Of a stretch of DNA of 64,000 bases, positions 30,137 to 39,032 are shown piece by piece; positions within the stretch are counted from its first letter, which is position 1, and each line of letters starts with the position of its first letter. Under the pieces are notes generated by a model. That model made no database searches, was not told where the DNA came from, and saw only the letters and a program-made list of their open reading frames with translations. Origin of the DNA: Chloroflexota bacterium (lineage in GTDB: Bacteria; Chloroflexota; UBA11872; UBA12225; JAJDUF01); contig DAOUJP010000010.1 in assembly GCA_034422515.1 (NCBI GenBank), forward strand, positions 200,123 through 264,122, in the 5' to 3' direction. The translations under genes and the position numbers were made by a program.

Positions 30137-31390
30137 ATGGCGGAAACCGAGCGTCGCCGCGTAGTAGTCACCGGCATGGGGGCGGTTACCCCGCTGGGCT
30201 TGGATGTGGCTAGTAGCTGGGAGGGGGTCATCGCGGGGGATTCCGGCGTCGTGCCGATCTCCACGTTCGACACCACCGGCTACCCCTGCCGGATTGCCGG
30301 TGAGGTCCGGGGGTTTAATCCGACCGACTATTTCGATGCCAAGGACGTGCGTCGTACCGACCGCTTCGTCCAGTTCAGTCTGGTCGCAACCCAGGAAGCA
30401 CTGCACGATGCCGACCTGGAAGTCACGGAGGAACGGGCGGACCACACGGGCGTCTATATCGGCACCGGCATCGGTGGCCTGATTACGTTGACCGAGCAGA
30501 TCAAGGTGCTCGACGAGCGGGGTGTGCGGCGGGTAAGCCCGTTTCTGGTGCCGATGATGATTGCCGACATGGCCTCCGGCCAGGTCAGCATAGACGTGGG
30601 GGCACGCGGACCGAATATGGGCATCGTGAGTGCCTGCTCCAGTGGAGCACACGCCATCGGGGAAGCCTACGAGGTAATTCGCCGGGGCGATGCCGAGGCG
30701 ATGATAACCGGCGGCACGGAAGGCTCCATCGTGCCCATCGGTCTGGCCGGCTTTTGTGCTTCGCGGGCACTCACCAGGCAGAACGGCGAGCCGGAACGGG
30801 CCTCGCGGCCTTTTGACGCCAAGCGCGACGGATTCGTGCCGGCCGAGGGCGCCGGCATCGTCATCCTGGAAAGCCTCGAACATGCCGAAGCCAGAGGCGC
30901 GCGGATTCACGCCGAACTGGTCGGCTACGGCGCCACGGCCGATGCCTTCCACATCACGCTGCCGGCAAAGGAAGGCGCCGGGGCGCGTCGCGCGATGGAG
31001 CGAGCGCTGCAAAAGGCCGACCTCGACGTAGGCGAGGTGGACTACATCAATGCCCACGGCACGAGCACCGAGGCCAACGACCGCTTGGAAACGCACGCCG
31101 TCAAGACCTTGTTCGGGGAGCACGCGGACCGGCTACCGATAAGCTCCACGAAGTCTATGATCGGCCACGCCCTGGGGGCGGCGGGTGGTATCGAAGCGGT
31201 CTTCACGATCAAGGCATTGCTGGACGACACGCTCCCGCCCACCATCAACTACGAGTATCCGGACCCGGCGTGTGACCTGAACTACGTCCCCAACGAGGCC
31301 CGGCCGGCGCGGGTGGACGTAGCCATGTCCAATAGCTTCGGGTTCGGTGGTCATAACGCCAGTCTCGTCTTCCGGGCTTATGCCCCCTGA
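30137..31390 (+). CDS. fabF: 3-oxoacyl-ACP synthase II
   Basis: VVVTGMGAVTPLG; active-site IVSACSSGAH; HGTSTEANDRLE; GHALGAAGGIEAV; FGFGGHNASLVF. Confidence 0.95.
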   Translation: MAETERRRVVVTGMGAVTPLGLDVASSWEGVIAGDSGVVPISTFDTTGYPCRIAGEVRGFNPTDYFDAKDVRRTDRFVQFSLVATQEALHDADLEVTEERADHTGVYIGTGIGGLITLTEQIKVLDERGVRRVSPFLVPMMIADMASGQVSIDVGARGPNMGIVSACSSGAHAIGEAYEVIRRGDAEAMITGGTEGSIVPIGLAGFCASRALTRQNGEPERASRPFDAKRDGFVPAEGAGIVILESLEHAEARGARIHAELVGYGATADAFHITLPAKEGAGARRAMERALQKADLDVGEVDYINAHGTSTEANDRLETHAVKTLFGEHADRLPISSTKSMIGHALGAAGGIEAVFTIKALLDDTLPPTINYEYPDPACDLNYVPNEARPARVDVAMSNSFGFGGHNASLVFRAYAP

Positions 31391-31910
31391 CACCGCCCGG
31401 CCGCTCCCCGAACGCCTCCACTGGCTGCGGGACCTGCTCGCCGCCGTCGAAGCCGCGGACCTCGCGGGGCTGGAGCTAAGTACCGGCGGGCTGCGCGTGT
31501 ACGTGCGCCGCCGGGTGACAGCCGTTGATGCACCGGTTATCGTCGCGGCGCCTCCCGCCGCAGCGCGTCCTGCGGCCGAGAGAACCGCTGCGGCGACCGC
31601 TCCCGCGACCACTGAGGTCGCCGATCAGGACCTGCTCGCCGTGCGGACCCCGCTGACCGGCATGTTCTACACGTCGCCAACGCCGCAAGACCCGCCGTAT
31701 GTCCAGGTTGGCGATCCGGTCGAGGCGGATCAGGTGGTGGCGCTCGTAGAAGCAATGAAAGTCTTCAACGAGATTCGCTCCGAGCACCGTGGGGTGGTGG
31801 AGCGCGTCGTCGCGGAGAACGGCCAACTGGTCCACACCGACCAGCCGCTGCTGCTGCTGCGGCCCATCGAGGGCGGGCCGGAGGGCACATCACCGGCGGC
31901 GGCGATGTAG
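31380..31910 (+). CDS. accB: Biotin carboxyl carrier protein of acetyl-CoA carboxylase
   Basis: Ala/Pro-rich linker then biotinyl domain VRTPLTGMFY...GDPVEADQVVALVEAMKVFNEIRSEHRGVV (EAMK biotin-attachment motif). Start overlaps the fabF stop by 11 nt. Confidence 0.8.
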   Translation: MPPDTARPLPERLHWLRDLLAAVEAADLAGLELSTGGLRVYVRRRVTAVDAPVIVAAPPAAARPAAERTAAATAPATTEVADQDLLAVRTPLTGMFYTSPTPQDPPYVQVGDPVEADQVVALVEAMKVFNEIRSEHRGVVERVVAENGQLVHTDQPLLLLRPIEGGPEGTSPAAAM

Positions 31911-31953
31911 GGCCACTCGCGGCCGGTCCTGCCGCGGGAGCGGGAGGAGTGGG

Positions 31954-32304
31954 ATGATTGAGCGCCTGGACTTGCAGCCGAGGCACCGCAAGCAGATCGA
32001 GGCGATGTTGCGCGAGCAACTGCCGGGCGTTGAAGTGTGGGCCTACGGCAGCCGCGTCAACGGCAGAGGCCATGGTGGCAGCGACCTTGACTTGGTGCTG
32101 CGCGGCCCGGACTTGCAGCGGCTGCCCATCGGCAAGCTCTCCGACTTGACGGAAGCCTTTCGGGAATCCAACATTCCCTTTCTCATCGAGGCGCGTGAGT
32201 GGGCGAGGCTGCCAGAGAGCTTCCATCGCGAGATCGAGCGAGACTACGTGGTGCTGGTGAGGGGCGTGGAGCGAACAACTGGGAGGGTATCCGATGCTGA
32301 CTAA
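31954..32304 (+). CDS. Minimal nucleotidyltransferase (MNT/Pol-beta superfamily; MntA-like)
   Basis: hG[GS]-x9-13-DhD signature: VWAYGSRVNGRGHGGSDLDLVL; 116 aa; the stop overlaps the downstream ATPase start (GATGCTGACTAA). Confidence 0.7.
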   Translation: MIERLDLQPRHRKQIEAMLREQLPGVEVWAYGSRVNGRGHGGSDLDLVLRGPDLQRLPIGKLSDLTEAFRESNIPFLIEAREWARLPESFHREIERDYVVLVRGVERTTGRVSDAD

Positions 32305-34039
32305 GCTCATCATCCGCCATTTTAAGCGTTTTGGCGCGGAAGTCGAGATCGAGTTGGGCAATCCCGTCGTGTTCATCGGCCCGAACAACTCGGGCAAAAC
32401 CTCGGCGATGCAAGCCTTAGCGCTCTGGGATATCGGCCTGAATCGCTGGAACGAGAAGCGCTCGGGGAGAAGTACACCAGAGAGGCGTCCGGGTGTCACC
32501 GTTAACCGAAGGGACCTCGTCTCCATACCTGTCCCAAGTGCGCGTCTGTTGTGGCATAGGCGCCATGTACGCGACGTGCAGCAGGTCGGAGGTCGCCCAC
32601 AGACCAGCAACGTCCGGATTGATGTCATTGTCAATGGCATCACCCAAGGCAGTGAATGGACCTGCGGGCTGGAGTTCGACTTTGCGAACGAGGAGTCGTT
32701 CTACTGCCGCCCGCTGCGGCGAGGCGAGGGTAAGACACCGGAGCGAATGTCAATTCCGCCGGAGGCCGGGGCAACGCAGATAGCCTTCCTTCCCCCGATG
32801 TCCGGCCTCGCGGCGACAGAGACACGCCTCGATCACGGTGCCGTGAATGTGCGTGTGGGAGAAGGCCGCACGGCCGAGGTCCTACGCAATCTCTGCTTCC
32901 GCATTTACCAAGAGCATCCGGGTGACTGGGAGAAGCTCGTTGCACAGATCGAGGGGTTGTTCGGGGCGGTACTCGAACCTCCGCACTACATCGAGGAGCG
33001 CGGCGAGATCGCCATGAGCTACCAGGAGCAAGGGGTGACGCTTGACCTCGCTTCCAGCGGCCGGGGCCTTCAGCAGACACTCCTCATCCTGGCGTACATG
33101 TACGCCAACCCTGGCGCCTTGCTCTTGCTCGACGAGCCGGACGCGCACCTCGAGATTCTGCGCCAGCGCCAGATATATCGGCTGCTCACGGAGGCGGCAG
33201 CCGGGAGCGGCAGCCAGATCATCGCGGCGAGCCACTCCGAGGTGCTCCTGAATGAAGCCGCGGGCAGAGACATGGTGATCGCTTTTGTCGGCCCGCCGCA
33301 TCGGATTGAAGACCGCGGCAGCCAGGTCCGCAAGGCGCTCACGGAGATCGGATTCGAGCACTACTACCAGGCCGAGCAGACGGGCTGGGTGCTCTATCTG
33401 GAAGGCTCCACGGACCTTTCCATCTTGCAGGCTTTTGCCCGGCGCCTCGGTCACGGCGAGGCGGCCCAAGTGCTGGAGCGCCCTTTCGTGCATTACGTTG
33501 GGAACCAGCCGGCCGCGGTAAAACGTCACCACTACGGTCTCGGGGAGGCGCTGCCGCACCTGCGAGGCGCGGCGCTCTTTGACCGCCGCGAATCTGGCGT
33601 CCCGACAATTGATCCGGTCGAATGTCTGATGTGGGAGCGACGGGAGATCGAGAACTACGTCTGCTCCCAGGCGACTCTGGAGAGGTATGCGCGGGCAGTA
33701 GGAGAAGGAGACACCCTCGGACCCCTGTTTGCGCCCGCAGAGGCCGACCGGCGGGTACACATCATGCGCGAGGCCATCGAGGAGGTTCAGAGGGCGATGC
33801 GGACTTTGGGCAAAGGCTCACCATGGAGCAGCGAGGTCAAGGTGAGCGATGACTTCCTGACTCCGCTGTTCCAGAACTACTTCCAGAAGCTCGGCTTGCC
33901 TAACCTGATGAACAAGAAGGACTTCTACGAGCTTGCCGAATACGTCCCTGAAGACGAGATTGACGCGGAGATTCGCGCCAAGCTGGACGCTATCGTGCGG
34001 GTCGCTGCGAGCGCCACTCCCGGGACGCGCGAACAGTAG
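32294..34039 (+). CDS. OLD/GajA/PARIS-like ABC-type ATPase (AAA_21-like) with C-terminal Toprim-like region
   Basis: N-terminus MLTKLIIRHFKRFGAEVEIELGNPVVFIGPNNSGKTSAMQAL (OLD-family start plus Walker A); signature-like LASSGRGLQQ; Walker B LLLLDEPDAHLE; H-loop AASHSE; C-terminal WVLYLEGSTDLSIL (Toprim-type EG) followed by FVHYVG...AALFDRRE. Confidence 0.65.
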   Translation: MLTKLIIRHFKRFGAEVEIELGNPVVFIGPNNSGKTSAMQALALWDIGLNRWNEKRSGRSTPERRPGVTVNRRDLVSIPVPSARLLWHRRHVRDVQQVGGRPQTSNVRIDVIVNGITQGSEWTCGLEFDFANEESFYCRPLRRGEGKTPERMSIPPEAGATQIAFLPPMSGLAATETRLDHGAVNVRVGEGRTAEVLRNLCFRIYQEHPGDWEKLVAQIEGLFGAVLEPPHYIEERGEIAMSYQEQGVTLDLASSGRGLQQTLLILAYMYANPGALLLLDEPDAHLEILRQRQIYRLLTEAAAGSGSQIIAASHSEVLLNEAAGRDMVIAFVGPPHRIEDRGSQVRKALTEIGFEHYYQAEQTGWVLYLEGSTDLSILQAFARRLGHGEAAQVLERPFVHYVGNQPAAVKRHHYGLGEALPHLRGAALFDRRESGVPTIDPVECLMWERREIENYVCSQATLERYARAVGEGDTLGPLFAPAEADRRVHIMREAIEEVQRAMRTLGKGSPWSSEVKVSDDFLTPLFQNYFQKLGLPNLMNKKDFYELAEYVPEDEIDAEIRAKLDAIVRVAASATPGTREQ

Positions 34040-34077
34040 GCCTGTCCGCACCGGCCGTCACGCTTAGTGAGCCGGTG

Positions 34078-35454
34078 CTACTCCACGCTGCCGGAGGCTA
34101 CTTCGTAGGCGCCTTGCACACCCTTGACCGCCGCGACGGGGGCACCGCTGCGGTAGTAGAGCGAGCCGAACGAGCGGGCCAAGGCGGTGGCGATCTCCGG
34201 GTGGGCGTCAATGAGGTTGCGGCGCTCGCCGCGGTCGGCGGTGAGGTCGTATAGCTCATCCGGCTCGTCGGGTGGCCGCAGCACTAGGCTCCACCGGTCA
34301 TCGCGGATGCAGCGCTCGTAGCCGGCGTGGTAGCCCGTAATCATGTGGTCGCGGTGCGCGGCGGTCTGCCCGCGTACCACGCGGTCAAAGCTGTGACCGT
34401 GCATGTCGGCGGTGAGGTTGGACCGGCCCATCATGGTGAGCAGGGTGGGTAACACGTCGTGGAACTGGGCCAGCGCGCTGATGCGTTGGCCGCCGCCACG
34501 ACCGCCGGGCAGCCGGAGTAGGAACGGCACCTTGAGCAGCTCGTTGTACAGGCGGTCGGTGCCCTTGAGGAACTTGCCGTGGTCGGCGAGGGGATGGCCG
34601 TGGTCCGCAACGAGCAGGATGATGGAATCGTCGTAGTAACCGAGATCGCGAAGGGTGGCGAACAGTTGACCGAGGCAGTGGTCCACGAAGGCCACCTCGC
34701 CCGCATATAGGCCGCGAATGTGGCGGATTTGCTCCGGCGAGGCCCACTCGGCGGCCGGGCCGCCCATCGGCAGGATGAGACGCGGCCCCCGGTACGCCGG
34801 GTCGGTGTAGGTATCCCAGTGCGATGGCGGGTCCCACGGCTCGTGGGGGTCGAAGCTATCAATCCAGAGGAAGAGCCGGTCGTGGGAGCGGTTGCGCTGG
34901 AGCCAAGTGCGGGCCTCGTCCACGACCTGCGCCGGGAACCAACGCTGCTCCTCGGTGAAGGCATCGGTATTGGCGAGGAACTGATGTATCCGTTCGCGCC
35001 AGAGCGGCGGGTAGTGCGCGTTGACGTAATCGTCCAGGTTGCGCTGCGCCGGGCCGGAGTCGTAGGGGTCGTACTCCTGGCCGCGGATCCAGCGATAGGA
35101 GTGGAAGTTGCGGTGAAAGTTCATGCCCGGCGCCCGGTAATGGTAGGTATCGGAGATCAGCCCGCAGACGTAGCCCTCGCCGCGCAGTAGCTCGGTGGCG
35201 GTTACGTCCTCCGCGGTCAGCGGCTGCCAGGGGCGGTAGGGGAGGGTGCGTTGGCCGGTGAGTAGCGCGGTGCGGACCGGTATCGTCGGGAACGCCTCCG
35301 GGTAGACGTTCTCGAAGATCAGGCTCTCTTGCCCAAAGGCATCAATGTTGGGCGTTTGACAGGGCGCAACATCAGCGAATGGCGCTTGTCCCTGGTGGTA
35401 GAGGCTGACGTGGTCCTGCCGTAGGCTGTCCAGCATGATGACGATGAGGTTCAC
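34078..35454 (-). CDS. Sulfatase-family (alkaline-phosphatase superfamily) protein with Thr at the FGly position
   Basis: LIVIMLDSLRQDH; TIPVRTALLTGQR aligns to the sulfatase C/S-x-P-x-R-AALLTG signature with Thr in place of Cys/Ser; ADHGHPLADHG metal-site region. Confidence 0.75.
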   Translation of the reverse strand: MNLIVIMLDSLRQDHVSLYHQGQAPFADVAPCQTPNIDAFGQESLIFENVYPEAFPTIPVRTALLTGQRTLPYRPWQPLTAEDVTATELLRGEGYVCGLISDTYHYRAPGMNFHRNFHSYRWIRGQEYDPYDSGPAQRNLDDYVNAHYPPLWRERIHQFLANTDAFTEEQRWFPAQVVDEARTWLQRNRSHDRLFLWIDSFDPHEPWDPPSHWDTYTDPAYRGPRLILPMGGPAAEWASPEQIRHIRGLYAGEVAFVDHCLGQLFATLRDLGYYDDSIILLVADHGHPLADHGKFLKGTDRLYNELLKVPFLLRLPGGRGGGQRISALAQFHDVLPTLLTMMGRSNLTADMHGHSFDRVVRGQTAAHRDHMITGYHAGYERCIRDDRWSLVLRPPDEPDELYDLTADRGERRNLIDAHPEIATALARSFGSLYYRSGAPVAAVKGVQGAYEVASGSVE

Positions 35455-35740: not shown

Positions 35741-36625
35741 TTACGCGACCTCGCGGCCGGTCAGGCGGCGGAGCGCGTCGGTGTACTTCTCTTGGGTCCG
35801 CGCGACCACCTCGGGCGGTAGCGGCGGGGCCGGCGGCGCTTTGTTCCAGCCAGTGGCGCTGAGGTAGTCGCGGACGTACTGTTTGTCGTAGCTGGGCGGG
35901 TTGCTGCCCGGCTCGTAGGTCTCCGTATCCCAGAAGCGCGACGAGTCCGGCGTCAGCAACTCATCAATCAAGATCAACTGACCCTCGGCGCTACCGTTGT
36001 CCTCGATGATGCCGAACTCCATCTTCGTATCGGCGATGATGATGCCGCGCTCCCGCGCTTGCTCCGCTGCGGCCGAGTAGACCGCGAGCGTCGCGTCGCG
36101 TAGCTGGGCCGCGAGCGGCCGGCCGACCATCGTTTCCACCTCCTCGAAGGTCAACGGCTCATCATGCCCGGTTTCGGCCTTGGTCGTTGGCGTGAAGATC
36201 GGCTCCGGGAGCTGCTGCGCCTCGATCAACCCCGCCGGCAGCCGAATGCCGCAGACGGTCCCCGACTTCTGGTACTCGGCCCAGCCCGAGCCGGTGATGT
36301 AGCCGCGCGCGACGCACTCGACGTCAATCCGCTCGGCCCGTCGCACCACCATGCTGCGACCGGTGAGCTGGGCGGCGTGTGCCTGTAGCTCCGCCGGATA
36401 CTCGTCCACGTCCGTTGTCAGCACGTGGTTGGGCAAGAGGTCTTGGGTCTGCTCGAACCAGTAGGCGGAGAGTTGGTTGAGCACCTTACCCTTCCCGGGG
36501 ATCGCCGTCGGCAGCACCACGTCGAACGCGGAGATGCGATCACTGACGACGATCAGTAGTTGGTCGCCCAGATCGTACACATCGCGTACCTTGTAGCGGA
36601 TAGCCAACTCCTCAAGCTGTGCCAT
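35741..36625 (-). CDS. purC: Phosphoribosylaminoimidazole-succinocarboxamide (SAICAR) synthase
   Basis: MAQLEELAIRYKVRDVYDLGDQLLIVVSDRISAFD...; own RBS AAGGAG 6 nt before the ATG; SAICAR_synt fold features throughout. Confidence 0.85.
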   Translation of the reverse strand: MAQLEELAIRYKVRDVYDLGDQLLIVVSDRISAFDVVLPTAIPGKGKVLNQLSAYWFEQTQDLLPNHVLTTDVDEYPAELQAHAAQLTGRSMVVRRAERIDVECVARGYITGSGWAEYQKSGTVCGIRLPAGLIEAQQLPEPIFTPTTKAETGHDEPLTFEEVETMVGRPLAAQLRDATLAVYSAAAEQARERGIIIADTKMEFGIIEDNGSAEGQLILIDELLTPDSSRFWDTETYEPGSNPPSYDKQYVRDYLSATGWNKAPPAPPLPPEVVARTQEKYTDALRRLTGREVA

Positions 36626-37252
36626 GACCTGCTCCTTTACTGCGGCTCTTGACTGCTGCTCGGCGATAGTGGGTTGCCGGGGAGCAAACCTCCTTTCATA
36701 CGTAGGTCCGAGGATGCGCCGCAGACGCTTGCGACCTTCCTGTATACGCCCCTTCACCGTAGTGATCGGTAGCTCCACAACCTCGGCGATCTTGCGGTAG
36801 CGCAGCCCGGCCACGTAGTACAGCGTGAGGGCCAGGCGCTGTGGTCGCGGCAAGGCCAGCAGGGCACGATTGAGGTCCTGGTGTAGCTCGCCGTGCTCGG
36901 CTGCACGCTCCGGGGACACTGCCCGCCCATCCTGCAGATCGCCCAAGGCGGGTGTATCGAGCGAGAGTGCCGGACGCCGCCGGCGACGCCAACGCAAACA
37001 CTCGTTGGCCACAATGCGGGCGAGCCAGCCGCCGAAGCGAGCCGGGTCGGCCAGGCTGTCGAGGTGCAGATACGCGGCGAGGAATGCCTGTTGGGCAACA
37101 TCCAAGGCATCTTCGCGGTGACCTAGATGGTAGTAAGCGAGTCCATAGGCCTCCGCCTGAAACCGCTCGACCAACTGCCCGAACGCGCCCTTATCCCCAG
37201 TCTGGCCGCGGCGGACTAGGTCGGCAGTGGATGAAGTCACTACGTCACTCAC
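36626..37252 (-). CDS. ECF sigma factor, in frame with and reading without a stop into purC
   Basis: Region 2 FLAAYLHLDSLADPARFGGWLARIVANECLRWRR; region 4 LPRPQRLALTLYYVAGLRYRKIAEVVELPITTVKGRIQEGRKRLRRIL. No stop codon before the purC ATG in the same frame. Confidence 0.6.
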
Positions 37253-37568
37253 GGGCGGCCTCCGTACTGGGCGCTGGCGAGGCGGCGGACTGGAAAGCGT
37301 CAGTGCGCCGCTGCGCCCCTCACAAGATACGATGCCGCGAGTCGGCGTTTGGGAAGAGGCCAGTTGCGGGGACGGGGTAGGTCCACTCCAGCGCGCCGAG
37401 CATCGTGATCCTCTACAAGTGATTCATCGTGAGCATCGGGGTTACACTCATGGTATAGTACGCGCGGCGACTACCAAGCAAGGAGACGGTGAGGTCGGCT
37501 GCGTTCGAGGAGCGCGCCGCGTTGGCGCGTGGCATGGTCTCGCCATCCGAATCAGGGGATGAGTCGTT

Positions 37569-38165
37569 ATGGTGAGCCGGAAGGATGGTTTCAGCGGGGA
37601 TTCCCAGGAGGCACATACTATAGATGATGTATATGCGAAGGTAAGGAGAGCGCTCTGTGGTTTCTTTAAATCGGATCGCGATTTGCTTGAAAAATGTGCA
37701 AACGAAAGGTCTATCACTCATAAACTAGCCGAGCATTTGCAGTGCCAGTTTAGGCATTTGAATGTGGATTGCGAATACAATAGACATGGTCTTAATGCCA
37801 AGATACTGCCTCGCTTTGCGGAGTGTATTGGTGAAGATGATTCAAGAGATAGGATGGTCTACCCGGATATTATCGTTCATCGGCGCGGAGAGGATAGATC
37901 CAACCTATTGGTGATTGAAGCTAAGAAGACTACCATGGAGGATATGGTATCGAAAAGCATGAAAAGAGGATTGAAGAGAGACAGGTGCAAATTGCGTGAA
38001 TTTACAAGAACACGCGGTTGCTACGAATACAAGTTTGGACTGTTGTTGGTATTTGACGTTGGTGAAGGTGGGAAGAAAATCTGTCGCGTCGAGTGTTTCA
38101 TCAAGGGGAAAAAGCGTAACAACACTGTCTGGGACTGTCTACGAGGCTTTCGCGGTGGTGGGTAA
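37569..38165 (+). CDS. PD-(D/E)xK-superfamily nuclease-like protein (low-GC island)
   Basis: CEYNRHG...YPDIIVHRRGEDRSNLLVIEAKK gives E...PD...(E)xK spacing; AT-rich codon usage; 198 aa. Confidence 0.55.
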   Translation: MVSRKDGFSGDSQEAHTIDDVYAKVRRALCGFFKSDRDLLEKCANERSITHKLAEHLQCQFRHLNVDCEYNRHGLNAKILPRFAECIGEDDSRDRMVYPDIIVHRRGEDRSNLLVIEAKKTTMEDMVSKSMKRGLKRDRCKLREFTRTRGCYEYKFGLLLVFDVGEGGKKICRVECFIKGKKRNNTVWDCLRGFRGGG

Positions 38166-38186
38166 TCGGGTAAGTGAGGGTGGACT

Positions 38187-38825
38187 ATGCGCCTACTGAT
38201 TGCTATATTTCTACTGCTACTTTCCTTGACTGTGCCAACTTCAAAGATTTTCGCTACGGATAGTGAACCTCGTCAGTGCGATTTTATACTTGGATTTGCT
38301 ACGCTCAAGGACTTGATTGATAGAGCAGAAGGCACAGAAAAAGTTGGCGATTGTCTTGAAGATCAACGCTTCAACCCAGAGAACGGTGATGCACTCCAAT
38401 AGACTACGGGTGGGCTATTGGTATGGCGTAAGGCTGATAACTGGACAGCATTTACGGATGGCTACCGTACCTGGATAAACGGACCGTATGGTCTACAGTC
38501 ACGTCTCAACACAGAATCATTTACTTGGGAAATGGGGGACACAGATGTACCCCTATTCAAGATGGATACAATTGAATATGATCGTTTTAACGCCTACAAG
38601 AATCATGTAGGTCAGACTGTCCGCATTATGGGCAGGGTAGCTAGAGGGGTATTGTTTGGATGGGGAAGCGATGGAGTGACACATTACTATGACAATATTG
38701 GGATAACATTTCTGGATGTAGGAGTATTTACGCCAGGGGGGGTGCTCACTATAGAGTGCCACACAACTTTATGGAAAGAGTCTCTTGTTACTATCGCAGT
38801 GATAGTGACAGGGACAAGTTTCTGA
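38187..38825 (+). pseudogene. Paralogue of the N-terminal domain of the SodC-like protein (45557-46336), interrupted by an in-frame TAG
   Basis: Signal peptide, then CDFILGFATLKDLIDRAEGTEKVGDCLEDQRFNPENGDALQ-stop-TTGGLLVWRKADNWTAFTDGYRTWING, collinear with CTFILGFKTLKGLIAAAEGPATVGECLENQRFDAHGNAAQRTAGGLMVWRKADNWTAFSDGYRTWVNQ. Both ORF segments (38187-38402 and 38418-38825) are in one frame. Confidence 0.6.
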
Positions 38826-39032
38826 CTGTGGAATATGGGGATGCCGTAGTAGTGGAAGGTGTAGTGACACCAGTAGGATCACCATCTACCAGCGTTGATC
38901 TAAGGAGATGCCGCCTTATCAGTAAAGTGGTAGGATTACCGTCTATAGAGCGTTAGTCTACGACCTGGCTCGCTCAGTGCTGATCTCGCCTGATTCTAAC
39001 GTTCAGAATCACTGCGGTCCGCTCTCCGCTGG

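Follow-up and report, generated by a model that had tools for sequence, protein, structure and literature searches.

A probable toxin-less remnant of a HEPN-MNT pair adjoins a stand-alone gene for a predicted ABC ATPase-Toprim protein of the OLD/PARIS superfamily in a Chloroflexota genome

A stretch of 64,000 nucleotides of contig DAOUJP010000010.1, from a Chloroflexota bacterium (assembly GCA_034422515.1) and hereafter called the window, carries a gene for a minimal nucleotidyltransferase (MNT, also referred to as the NTase) that ends inside the start of a gene for an ABC-type ATPase with a predicted C-terminal Toprim domain. In an initial annotation, this MNT and its OLD-like neighbor were proposed to form a novel module. 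Such a module, if real, would be a notable addition to the known defence systems, but the evidence points instead to a common pattern, that of a toxin-antitoxin (TA) pair caught losing its toxin beside an unrelated stand-alone gene. The probable explanation of the locus is that a toxin-less remnant of a HEPN-MNT pair abuts an unrelated, stand-alone ATPase-Toprim gene of the OLD/PARIS superfamily, and that the two do not constitute a two-gene defence module. Because the window lost its HEPN gene by deletion, the pairing of NTase and ATPase is probably the product of toxin-gene loss beside a stand-alone gene.

The loss is visible by comparison within the clade, which comprises eight genomes: the window and the loci L001, L002, L003, L025, L026, L096 and L097 (L-numbers denote loci). 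HEPN partners of NTase homologues were used as queries against 80 ATPase loci retrieved from one-genome-per-species contigs. An intact HEPN-type gene of 140 aa lies directly upstream of the NTase gene in six of the eight clade genomes (L002, L003, L025, L026, L096, L097), and its product is 63-68% identical to the HEPN queries in L002, L003, L025 and L026. This gene product matches PF08780 (1.4e-15) and HepT-like (1.1e-4) and carries an RNDTAH motif (Rx4H), and the gene is joined to the NTase gene by an ATGA stop/start overlap. In the two nearest relatives of the window (96% and 94% ATPase identity), the called genes are an NTase_sub_bind gene of 140 aa, an NTase gene of 116 aa and an ATPase gene of 581 aa. 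The ancestral array of the clade was HEPN (140 aa)-MNT (116 aa)-ATPase/Toprim (581 aa), with overlaps of 4 nt and 11 nt. The intact gene of the relatives ends in ...GCGGAGGA(A/G)TGGGATGA, and only its tail is retained in the window. Homology of the window to its relatives extends through accB and its 3' flank up to position 31941 and resumes at 31943, ~12 nt before the NTase start, and no HEPN homologue was found by tblastn elsewhere across the 64-kb window. In the initial annotation it was noted that MNTs normally pair with HEPN toxins; in six clade genomes an intact NTase_sub_bind gene overlaps the NTase start, and the window has lost it. A different deletion, internal and in-frame, has reduced the HEPN gene of L001 to a 28-aa remnant.

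It could also be hypothesized that the missing HEPN gene is an artefact of assembly or binning and that the true genome holds the full three-gene array, as might be suggested by the intact HEPN gene in the two nearest relatives (94-96% ATPase identity) and by the lack of decay in the window NTase. This is extremely improbable, since the junction is clean, the ribosome-binding site of the NTase being kept and joined directly to the 3' flank of accB with homology on both sides, and since L001, with its own in-frame deletion, shows that HEPN-gene deletions happen.

The assignment of the NTase to the Pol-beta-type minimal nucleotidyltransferases, with a GS ... DLD motif in a product of 116 aa, is upheld by Pfam and by the translation. 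The protein passes the Pfam cut-offs of NTP_transf_2 (28.3 bits vs 21) and MTPAP-like_central (32 bits vs 27), and fails the NCBIfam equivalog cut-off of MntA_antitoxin (17.9 bits vs 60). Its homologues are numerous (2244 matches), and many are ~70-80% identical and 105-112 aa in length. All three that were looked up (P0129, P0138, P0183) overlap a PF08780 NTase_sub_bind/HepT-like gene, and overlapping PF08780 and NTase genes are the classic HI0074/HI0073 HEPN-MNT arrangement. The locus thus resembles HI0073/HI0074 and the MntA-HepT TA systems of type VII in its ~110-aa minimal NTase with a GS...DxD motif and in the overlapping PF08780/HepT-like partner (Rx4H) found with the NTase homologues and in six clade genomes. 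It differs from MntA-HepT in the deletion of the HEPN gene in the window, in the sub-threshold MntA_antitoxin score and in the gene order of the clade, with HEPN first and MNT second. Two of the three homologues looked up sit in type I restriction-modification loci in which HsdS is fused to an NTase. The specificity subunits fused to a Pol-beta NTase (Polbeta + Methylase_S) adjoin the HEPN-MNT pairs of NTase homologues in L082 (3599-5143) and L083 (3797-5443). Fusions of HsdS and NTase account for the odd match of the window NTase to the PADLOC model 'Specificity_I'.

Within the clade, the ratio of non-synonymous to synonymous substitution rates (dN/dS) of the NTase is 0.07-0.25, indicating purifying selection. 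The changes private to the window NTase number two non-synonymous vs three synonymous; this absence of a non-synonymous excess fits a recent deletion of the toxin gene. As a separate observation, the NTase start in L003 (4661-4663) is ATA and not ATG, with the remaining gene and the upstream HEPN gene intact.

The open reading frames (ORFs) of the NTase and the ATPase overlap by 11 nt, the ATPase ATG being located within the final NTase codons (ATGCTGACTAA), and the same junction is found in L001, L002, L003, L025, L026, L096 and L097. The end of the NTase inside the start of the 581-aa protein, as first annotated, is therefore kept in seven relatives, and the preservation there of the overlap and of both reading frames indicates that the arrangement is not due to chance. 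Outside the clade, the arrangement disappears. Among the 80 ATPase loci, an NTase was detected directly upstream of the ATPase by tblastn in five (L001, L002, L003, L025, L026), all of them Chloroflexota metagenome-assembled genomes with at least 88% ATPase identity and a shared fabF-accB ... sulfatase synteny. In the other 75, the NTase is absent beside the ATPase. Since all pairings occur at one syntenic site, a single evolutionary event is implied, and the proposal of a novel module of MNT and OLD-like ATPase fares poorly, with 5/80 loci drawn from one syntenic clade. Absence of the pairing from related genomes, which the initial annotation had named as evidence against its own proposal, is thus observed at most loci (75/80), while within the clade the pairing is kept.

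That the MNT and the OLD-like ATPase-Toprim protein nevertheless form a functional defence or TA-like module, clade-wide and of three genes where the HEPN gene is present, is very unlikely. In such a module, nucleotidylation by the MNT might hold the nuclease in check, or the TA pair might serve the nuclease gene as a regulator or addiction device. Support comes from the conservation of the 11-nt overlap and shared operon structure in eight genomes, from the purifying selection on the NTase, from the HEPN gene having been deleted twice independently with the MNT and ATPase genes retained, and from an unrelated locus, L023, in which a HEPN-MNT pair lies ~4.3 kb upstream of the ATPase gene. However, the pairing is missing at 75 of the 80 ATPase-family loci, all three looked-up NTase homologues are partnered by PF08780 and not by an ATPase, every pairing occupies the same syntenic site (fabF-accB ... 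sulfatase), and retention of the antitoxin after loss of the toxin is expected of a decaying TA pair. A related possibility, given a marginally smaller chance still, is that the overlapping HEPN-MNT-ATPase/Toprim genes make up one integrated system of the clade, with the TA pair or the lone MNT controlling or modifying the nuclease, for example by nucleotidylation; if true, this would be a new wiring of a type VII TA pair to an ABC-Toprim effector.

The N-terminal part of the 581-aa protein was annotated from the outset as an ABC ATPase like those of OLD, GajA and PARIS, with Walker A, signature, Walker B and H-loop, and Pfam, profile and family conservation all agree. Pfam matches were obtained to AAA_21 (2.4e-19), AAA_15 (5.4e-15) and SMC_N. 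Within the ATPase family, little or no variation is seen at K35 (Walker A), D280/E281 (Walker B) and H314 (H-loop), and none at Q261 of the ABC signature. The PADLOC matches are confined to the ATPase portions of the NsnB, AriA, mad3, GajA, AbiLi and Old models. When the family profile was compared with the PDB, the best solved relative was the Class 1 OLD protein of Thermus scotoductus (Ts OLD; 6p74, E 9.6e-16), with the match limited to the ATPase domain. The same structure was the best Foldseek match of the full-length model, in which the ATPase part is poorly modelled, with PtuA and GajA among the top matches.

The C-terminal domain (residues ~335-581) had no sequence match in Pfam, NCBIfam or the PDB; in particular, Pfam OLD-like_TOPRIM (PF20469) did not match the window protein, and a profile of the C-terminal family returned nothing significant against Pfam and PDB sequences. 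Because its own sequence searches gave nothing, the link of this domain to Toprim is based on structure comparison and on distant members. An AlphaFold2 model of residues 340-581 (pLDDT 89.5, pTM 0.84) shows a core of beta-alpha-beta-alpha-beta-beta topology with a helical bundle after it, and a Foldseek search with this model places the C-terminal regions of Class 2 OLD proteins first (6njx, probability 1.00) and AriB next. Among 22 distant C-termini, five match the PADLOC AriAB model (best 5.2e-7), two match AriB and one GajA, and one distant family member matches Pfam OLD-like_TOPRIM below threshold. The C-terminus is predicted with confidence to be a Toprim domain of the OLD/AriB type followed by a helical bundle. 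Profile searches suggested by the initial annotation therefore succeeded for NTP_transf_2 and AAA_21/AAA_15 but gave no DUF4435 or Toprim_Old match on the C-terminus, whereas the structure prediction that it had also suggested yielded a Toprim fold with OLD and AriB matches; a Toprim-like C-terminus opening with an EG (E370), as it had envisaged, is supported by this model. A HEPN-like identity was considered for the helical C-terminus of the ATPase but rejected, since every stand-alone member has this domain and structure comparison relates it to OLD and AriB, not to HEPN.

The invariant acidic residues comprise E370 and D374, which form an E-x3-D motif behind the first strand, D430, which follows the third, and E451/E453, which lie beyond the fourth. 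This E-x3-D ... D ... E-x-E pattern parallels the acidic residues of AriB (E26/D30/D88/E90/E122; PMC11464382) and of Ts OLD (E377/D381/D431/D433/S478/E480; PMC7049728). The suspicion that the Toprim DxD is degenerate proved correct: it reads D430-R431-R432, and no acidic residue is conserved at the second position across the family. Judged by pattern and secondary structure, the full set of OLD metal A/B ligands (E, D-x-D, D, S/T-x-E) is not matched in the window protein. At 60 and 21-23, the acidic residues are spaced more as in AriB than as in Ts OLD (54 and 49).

The 581-aa protein is filed as a divergent member of the ABC ATPase-Toprim (OLD/PARIS) superfamily, outside every named class; genomic context and ATPase sequence bring it nearest to Class 1 OLD, and its Toprim domain brings it nearest to AriB or merged AriAB. 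With the Class 1 OLD proteins (P2 Old, Ts OLD; PMC7049728) it shares an architecture of ~520-590 aa in which a single polypeptide joins an N-terminal ABC ATPase, interrupted by an insertion, to a C-terminal Toprim. It also shares with them an acidic pattern of E-x3-D ... D ... x-E and the encoding by an isolated gene that has no conserved partner (no NTase at 75/80 loci of the ATPase family). Unlike them, it has a sequence match confined to the ATPase domain, no match to OLD-like_TOPRIM and no second Asp in the DxD. Ts OLD also lacks the helical bundle that follows the Toprim core in the window protein, whereas AriB and the C-terminal regions of Class 2 OLD proteins have helical parts at this place. 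The likeness to PARIS (AriA plus AriB with DUF4435/Toprim, or merged AriAB; PMC11464382) lies in the AriB-like Toprim fold predicted for the window protein; however, its C-terminus matches none of Pfam DUF4435 (PF14491), AriB and AriAB, its length is ~580 aa vs 694 positions in the AriAB model, and its ATPase domain has no significant sequence match to AriA in the PDB. Gabija GajA (Class 2 OLD) is similar in combining ABC ATPase, Toprim and a helical C-terminal domain, and many PADLOC GajA models match the window protein, through short ATPase motifs only. In contrast to Gabija, no UvrD/PcrA-like GajB helicase gene adjoins the ATPase gene in the window, and no conserved neighbor exists in the 80 loci.

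The 581-aa protein has matches in more than 8000 database clusters; full-length identity is 72-96% in the best 120. By pattern scans, 172 relatives were picked up in 185,579 species genomes. The 80 loci retrieved (58-91% identity) come from Chloroflexota, Dehalococcoidia, Acidobacteriota, Gemmatimonadota/Longimicrobiales, Desulfobacterota, Acidimicrobiales, Binatia, Nitrospinota and others, with 58-79% identity between phyla. The C-terminal domain was found in 776 clusters at 50% identity in a search of 1.84 billion representative proteins, always at the C-terminus of proteins of ~550-630 aa; shorter matches look like fragments. When neighboring ORFs within 3 kb were clustered across the 80 loci, no family was common to more than six loci, and gene calls around P0097 (8 places), P0037, P0010 and P0088 place the ATPase by itself, set off by intergenic spacers from the neighboring transport and metabolic genes. 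Flanks of 350 nt (upstream) and 250 nt (downstream) of the gene, compared at 75 loci, share no repeats or ends indicative of a mobile cassette and are similar only within related lineages; this suggests a stable chromosomal singleton and not a cassette with recognizable ends. Searches by tblastn gave only remote ATPase-domain matches in the PLSDB plasmids and none in the INPHARED phages, and a query of IMG/VR with the single protein gave no match.

Family members were nevertheless seen on two IMG/VR contigs. In L099 (94-10389), a member with 54% identity lies just after a phage tail gene (Phage-tail_3, Rcc01698_C) and also adjoins a DruA-like fragment and a C5 DNA methylase; in L098 (2130-8653), a member with 63% identity lies near an 827-aa N6/N4 DNA methylase. 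These contexts give some support to a defence role for the ATPase-Toprim protein. Two further loci, L032 and L035, are both on OX639991.1 (Longimicrobiales), which carries two ATPase-Toprim copies at different sites, each ~69% identical to the window protein. In L092 (1-3987), the ATPase-Toprim gene is preceded, at a distance of 14 nt, by the end of a gene whose product exceeds 1500 aa and has no Pfam match.

The ATPase-Toprim protein is probably a defence enzyme. It has also been considered whether the protein could be a chromosomal nuclease of genome maintenance or stress, with a role like that of Rad50, RecF or YbjD, that shares the OLD architecture and is unrelated to the adjoining MNT. 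This is unlikely, though less so than the readings that join the MNT to the nuclease. It is favored by the unusual conservation of the family between phyla (58-79%), by flanks conserved within lineages as expected for a stable resident, by transport and metabolic neighbors in place of defence islands, and by the absence of copies from plasmid and phage collections. On the other hand, the distribution is patchy (172 relatives in 185,579 species genomes; 776 C-terminal clusters), one genome carries two copies, the neighbors of members on two viral contigs include methylases, a phage tail gene and a DruA-like fragment, and all detectable relatives of known role (OLD, GajA, PtuA, AriA/AriB) are defence proteins.

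Several points weigh against reading the locus as an orphaned MNT beside an independent defence gene. The 11-nt overlap and the Shine-Dalgarno sequence inside the NTase are conserved in 8/8 clade genomes at a synonymous divergence (dS) of ~0.3-0.45, and the two independent deletions both removed the toxin and spared the MNT and ATPase, as a functional MNT-ATPase link would likewise predict. Decay of the TA pair together with operon constraints accounts equally well for the conserved overlap and for the deletions that spared the MNT. Most members of the ATPase-Toprim family occupy ordinary chromosomal neighborhoods that are stable within lineages, no member is present in the plasmid and phage collections PLSDB and INPHARED, and the defence role of the family is a putative one. 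Finally, the ATPase domain is poorly modelled in the structure prediction, and the DxD (D-x-E in AriB) has no conserved acidic residue at its second position, leaving the catalytic competence of the domain as a prediction.

Under the favored explanation of a decaying TA pair beside an unrelated gene, the locus would have held a HEPN-MNT pair of the HI0074/HI0073 type (type VII-like) whose toxin gene was recently deleted, leaving an intact but orphan MNT. This MNT would formerly have neutralized the HEPN RNase and would now be without a cognate target at the locus. Its persistence could be explained by the recency of the deletion and perhaps also by the MNT 3' end, which contains the ATPase start and its ribosome-binding site. 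Following the deletion, the NTase-ATPase pair begins 44 nt after accB and probably depends on read-through from fabF-accB for its transcription; MNT and ATPase-Toprim protein may be co-transcribed yet work independently. It is proposed that the ABC ATPase heads act as a dimer in ATP-dependent sensing or switching and gate a two-metal Toprim nuclease (E370, D374, D430, E451/E453), in the manner of P2 Old, Gabija GajA and PARIS. The predicted nuclease would cut nucleic acid and so halt phage growth, as do P2 Old or PARIS; the substrate might be tRNA, by comparison with AriB, or DNA, by comparison with OLD.

The features of the locus are listed in Table 1.

Table 1. Positions of the genes, domains and motifs discussed, in window coordinates
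Feature	Position	Strand	Remarks
Deletion scar	31938..31957	+	Last ~15-18 nt of HEPN-type (NTase_sub_bind) gene; NTase Shine-Dalgarno GGAGGAG, ATGA overlap
Minimal nucleotidyltransferase (MNT, HI0073-like antitoxin type)	31954..32304	+	116 aa; orphan here, without HEPN partner
NTase catalytic motif G31-S32 ... D44-L-D46	32044..32091	+	From translation; identical in all 8 clade sequences
Junction	32281..32304	+	Shine-Dalgarno GGGAGGG 32281-32287, ATPase ATG 32294, NTase stop TAA 32302-32304
ABC ATPase-Toprim gene (Toprim predicted)	32294..34039	+	581 aa
ABC-type (AAA_15/AAA_21, OLD-like) ATPase domain, residues 1-339	32294..33310	+	Pfam; insertion between Walker A and signature
Walker A	32378-32401	+	
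Walker B	33122-33142	+	
Predicted Toprim core, residues ~360-460	33371..33673	+	Family-invariant E370, D374, D430, E451, E453
Predicted C-terminal helical bundle, residues ~461-581	33674..34039	+	Secondary structure of model; after Toprim core

The pair lies between fabF-accB upstream and a sulfatase gene downstream on the minus strand, with no helicase gene near the ATPase gene, in agreement with the initial description of this neighborhood. Long antisense or alternative-frame ORFs (31765-32643 minus; 31789-32304 plus) are regarded as spurious in this GC-rich region, because homology fixes the frames and starts of the NTase and ATPase. Neither the promoter scan nor the terminator scan of 31300-34400 was informative, and no Rfam RNA family was found near the locus. 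The distance from accB to the TA pair ranges among close relatives from 0.5 to 2.3 kb. This segment carries a Crp-like regulator in L096 (L001, L002, L003 and L025 have a similar ORF on the minus strand) and Uma2 in L097, and it appears to be a hot spot of insertion and deletion. Farther downstream, a single frame of 503 aa (35741-37252, minus strand) encodes an extracytoplasmic function (ECF)-type sigma factor (Sigma70_r2, r4) and a complete SAICAR synthetase (PurC), representing either a fusion or two in-frame genes with no intervening stop; at the matching place in L096, a sigma-domain gene of 474 aa is called. An island of low GC content (37500-39000; 0.46-0.47 vs ~0.65 around) contains three ORFs (37569-38165, 38187-38402, 38418-38825) with no Pfam match and looks like recently acquired foreign DNA.

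The clade offers a natural series of TA decay, from an intact pair through an internal deletion of the toxin gene to its full deletion with the antitoxin kept. The ATPase-Toprim protein itself represents a large, uncharacterized and unusually conserved single-polypeptide lineage of OLD/PARIS-like proteins in uncultured soil and sediment bacteria. Because Pfam and PADLOC recognize the Toprim part in only a few distant members, this family is probably overlooked in surveys of defence systems.

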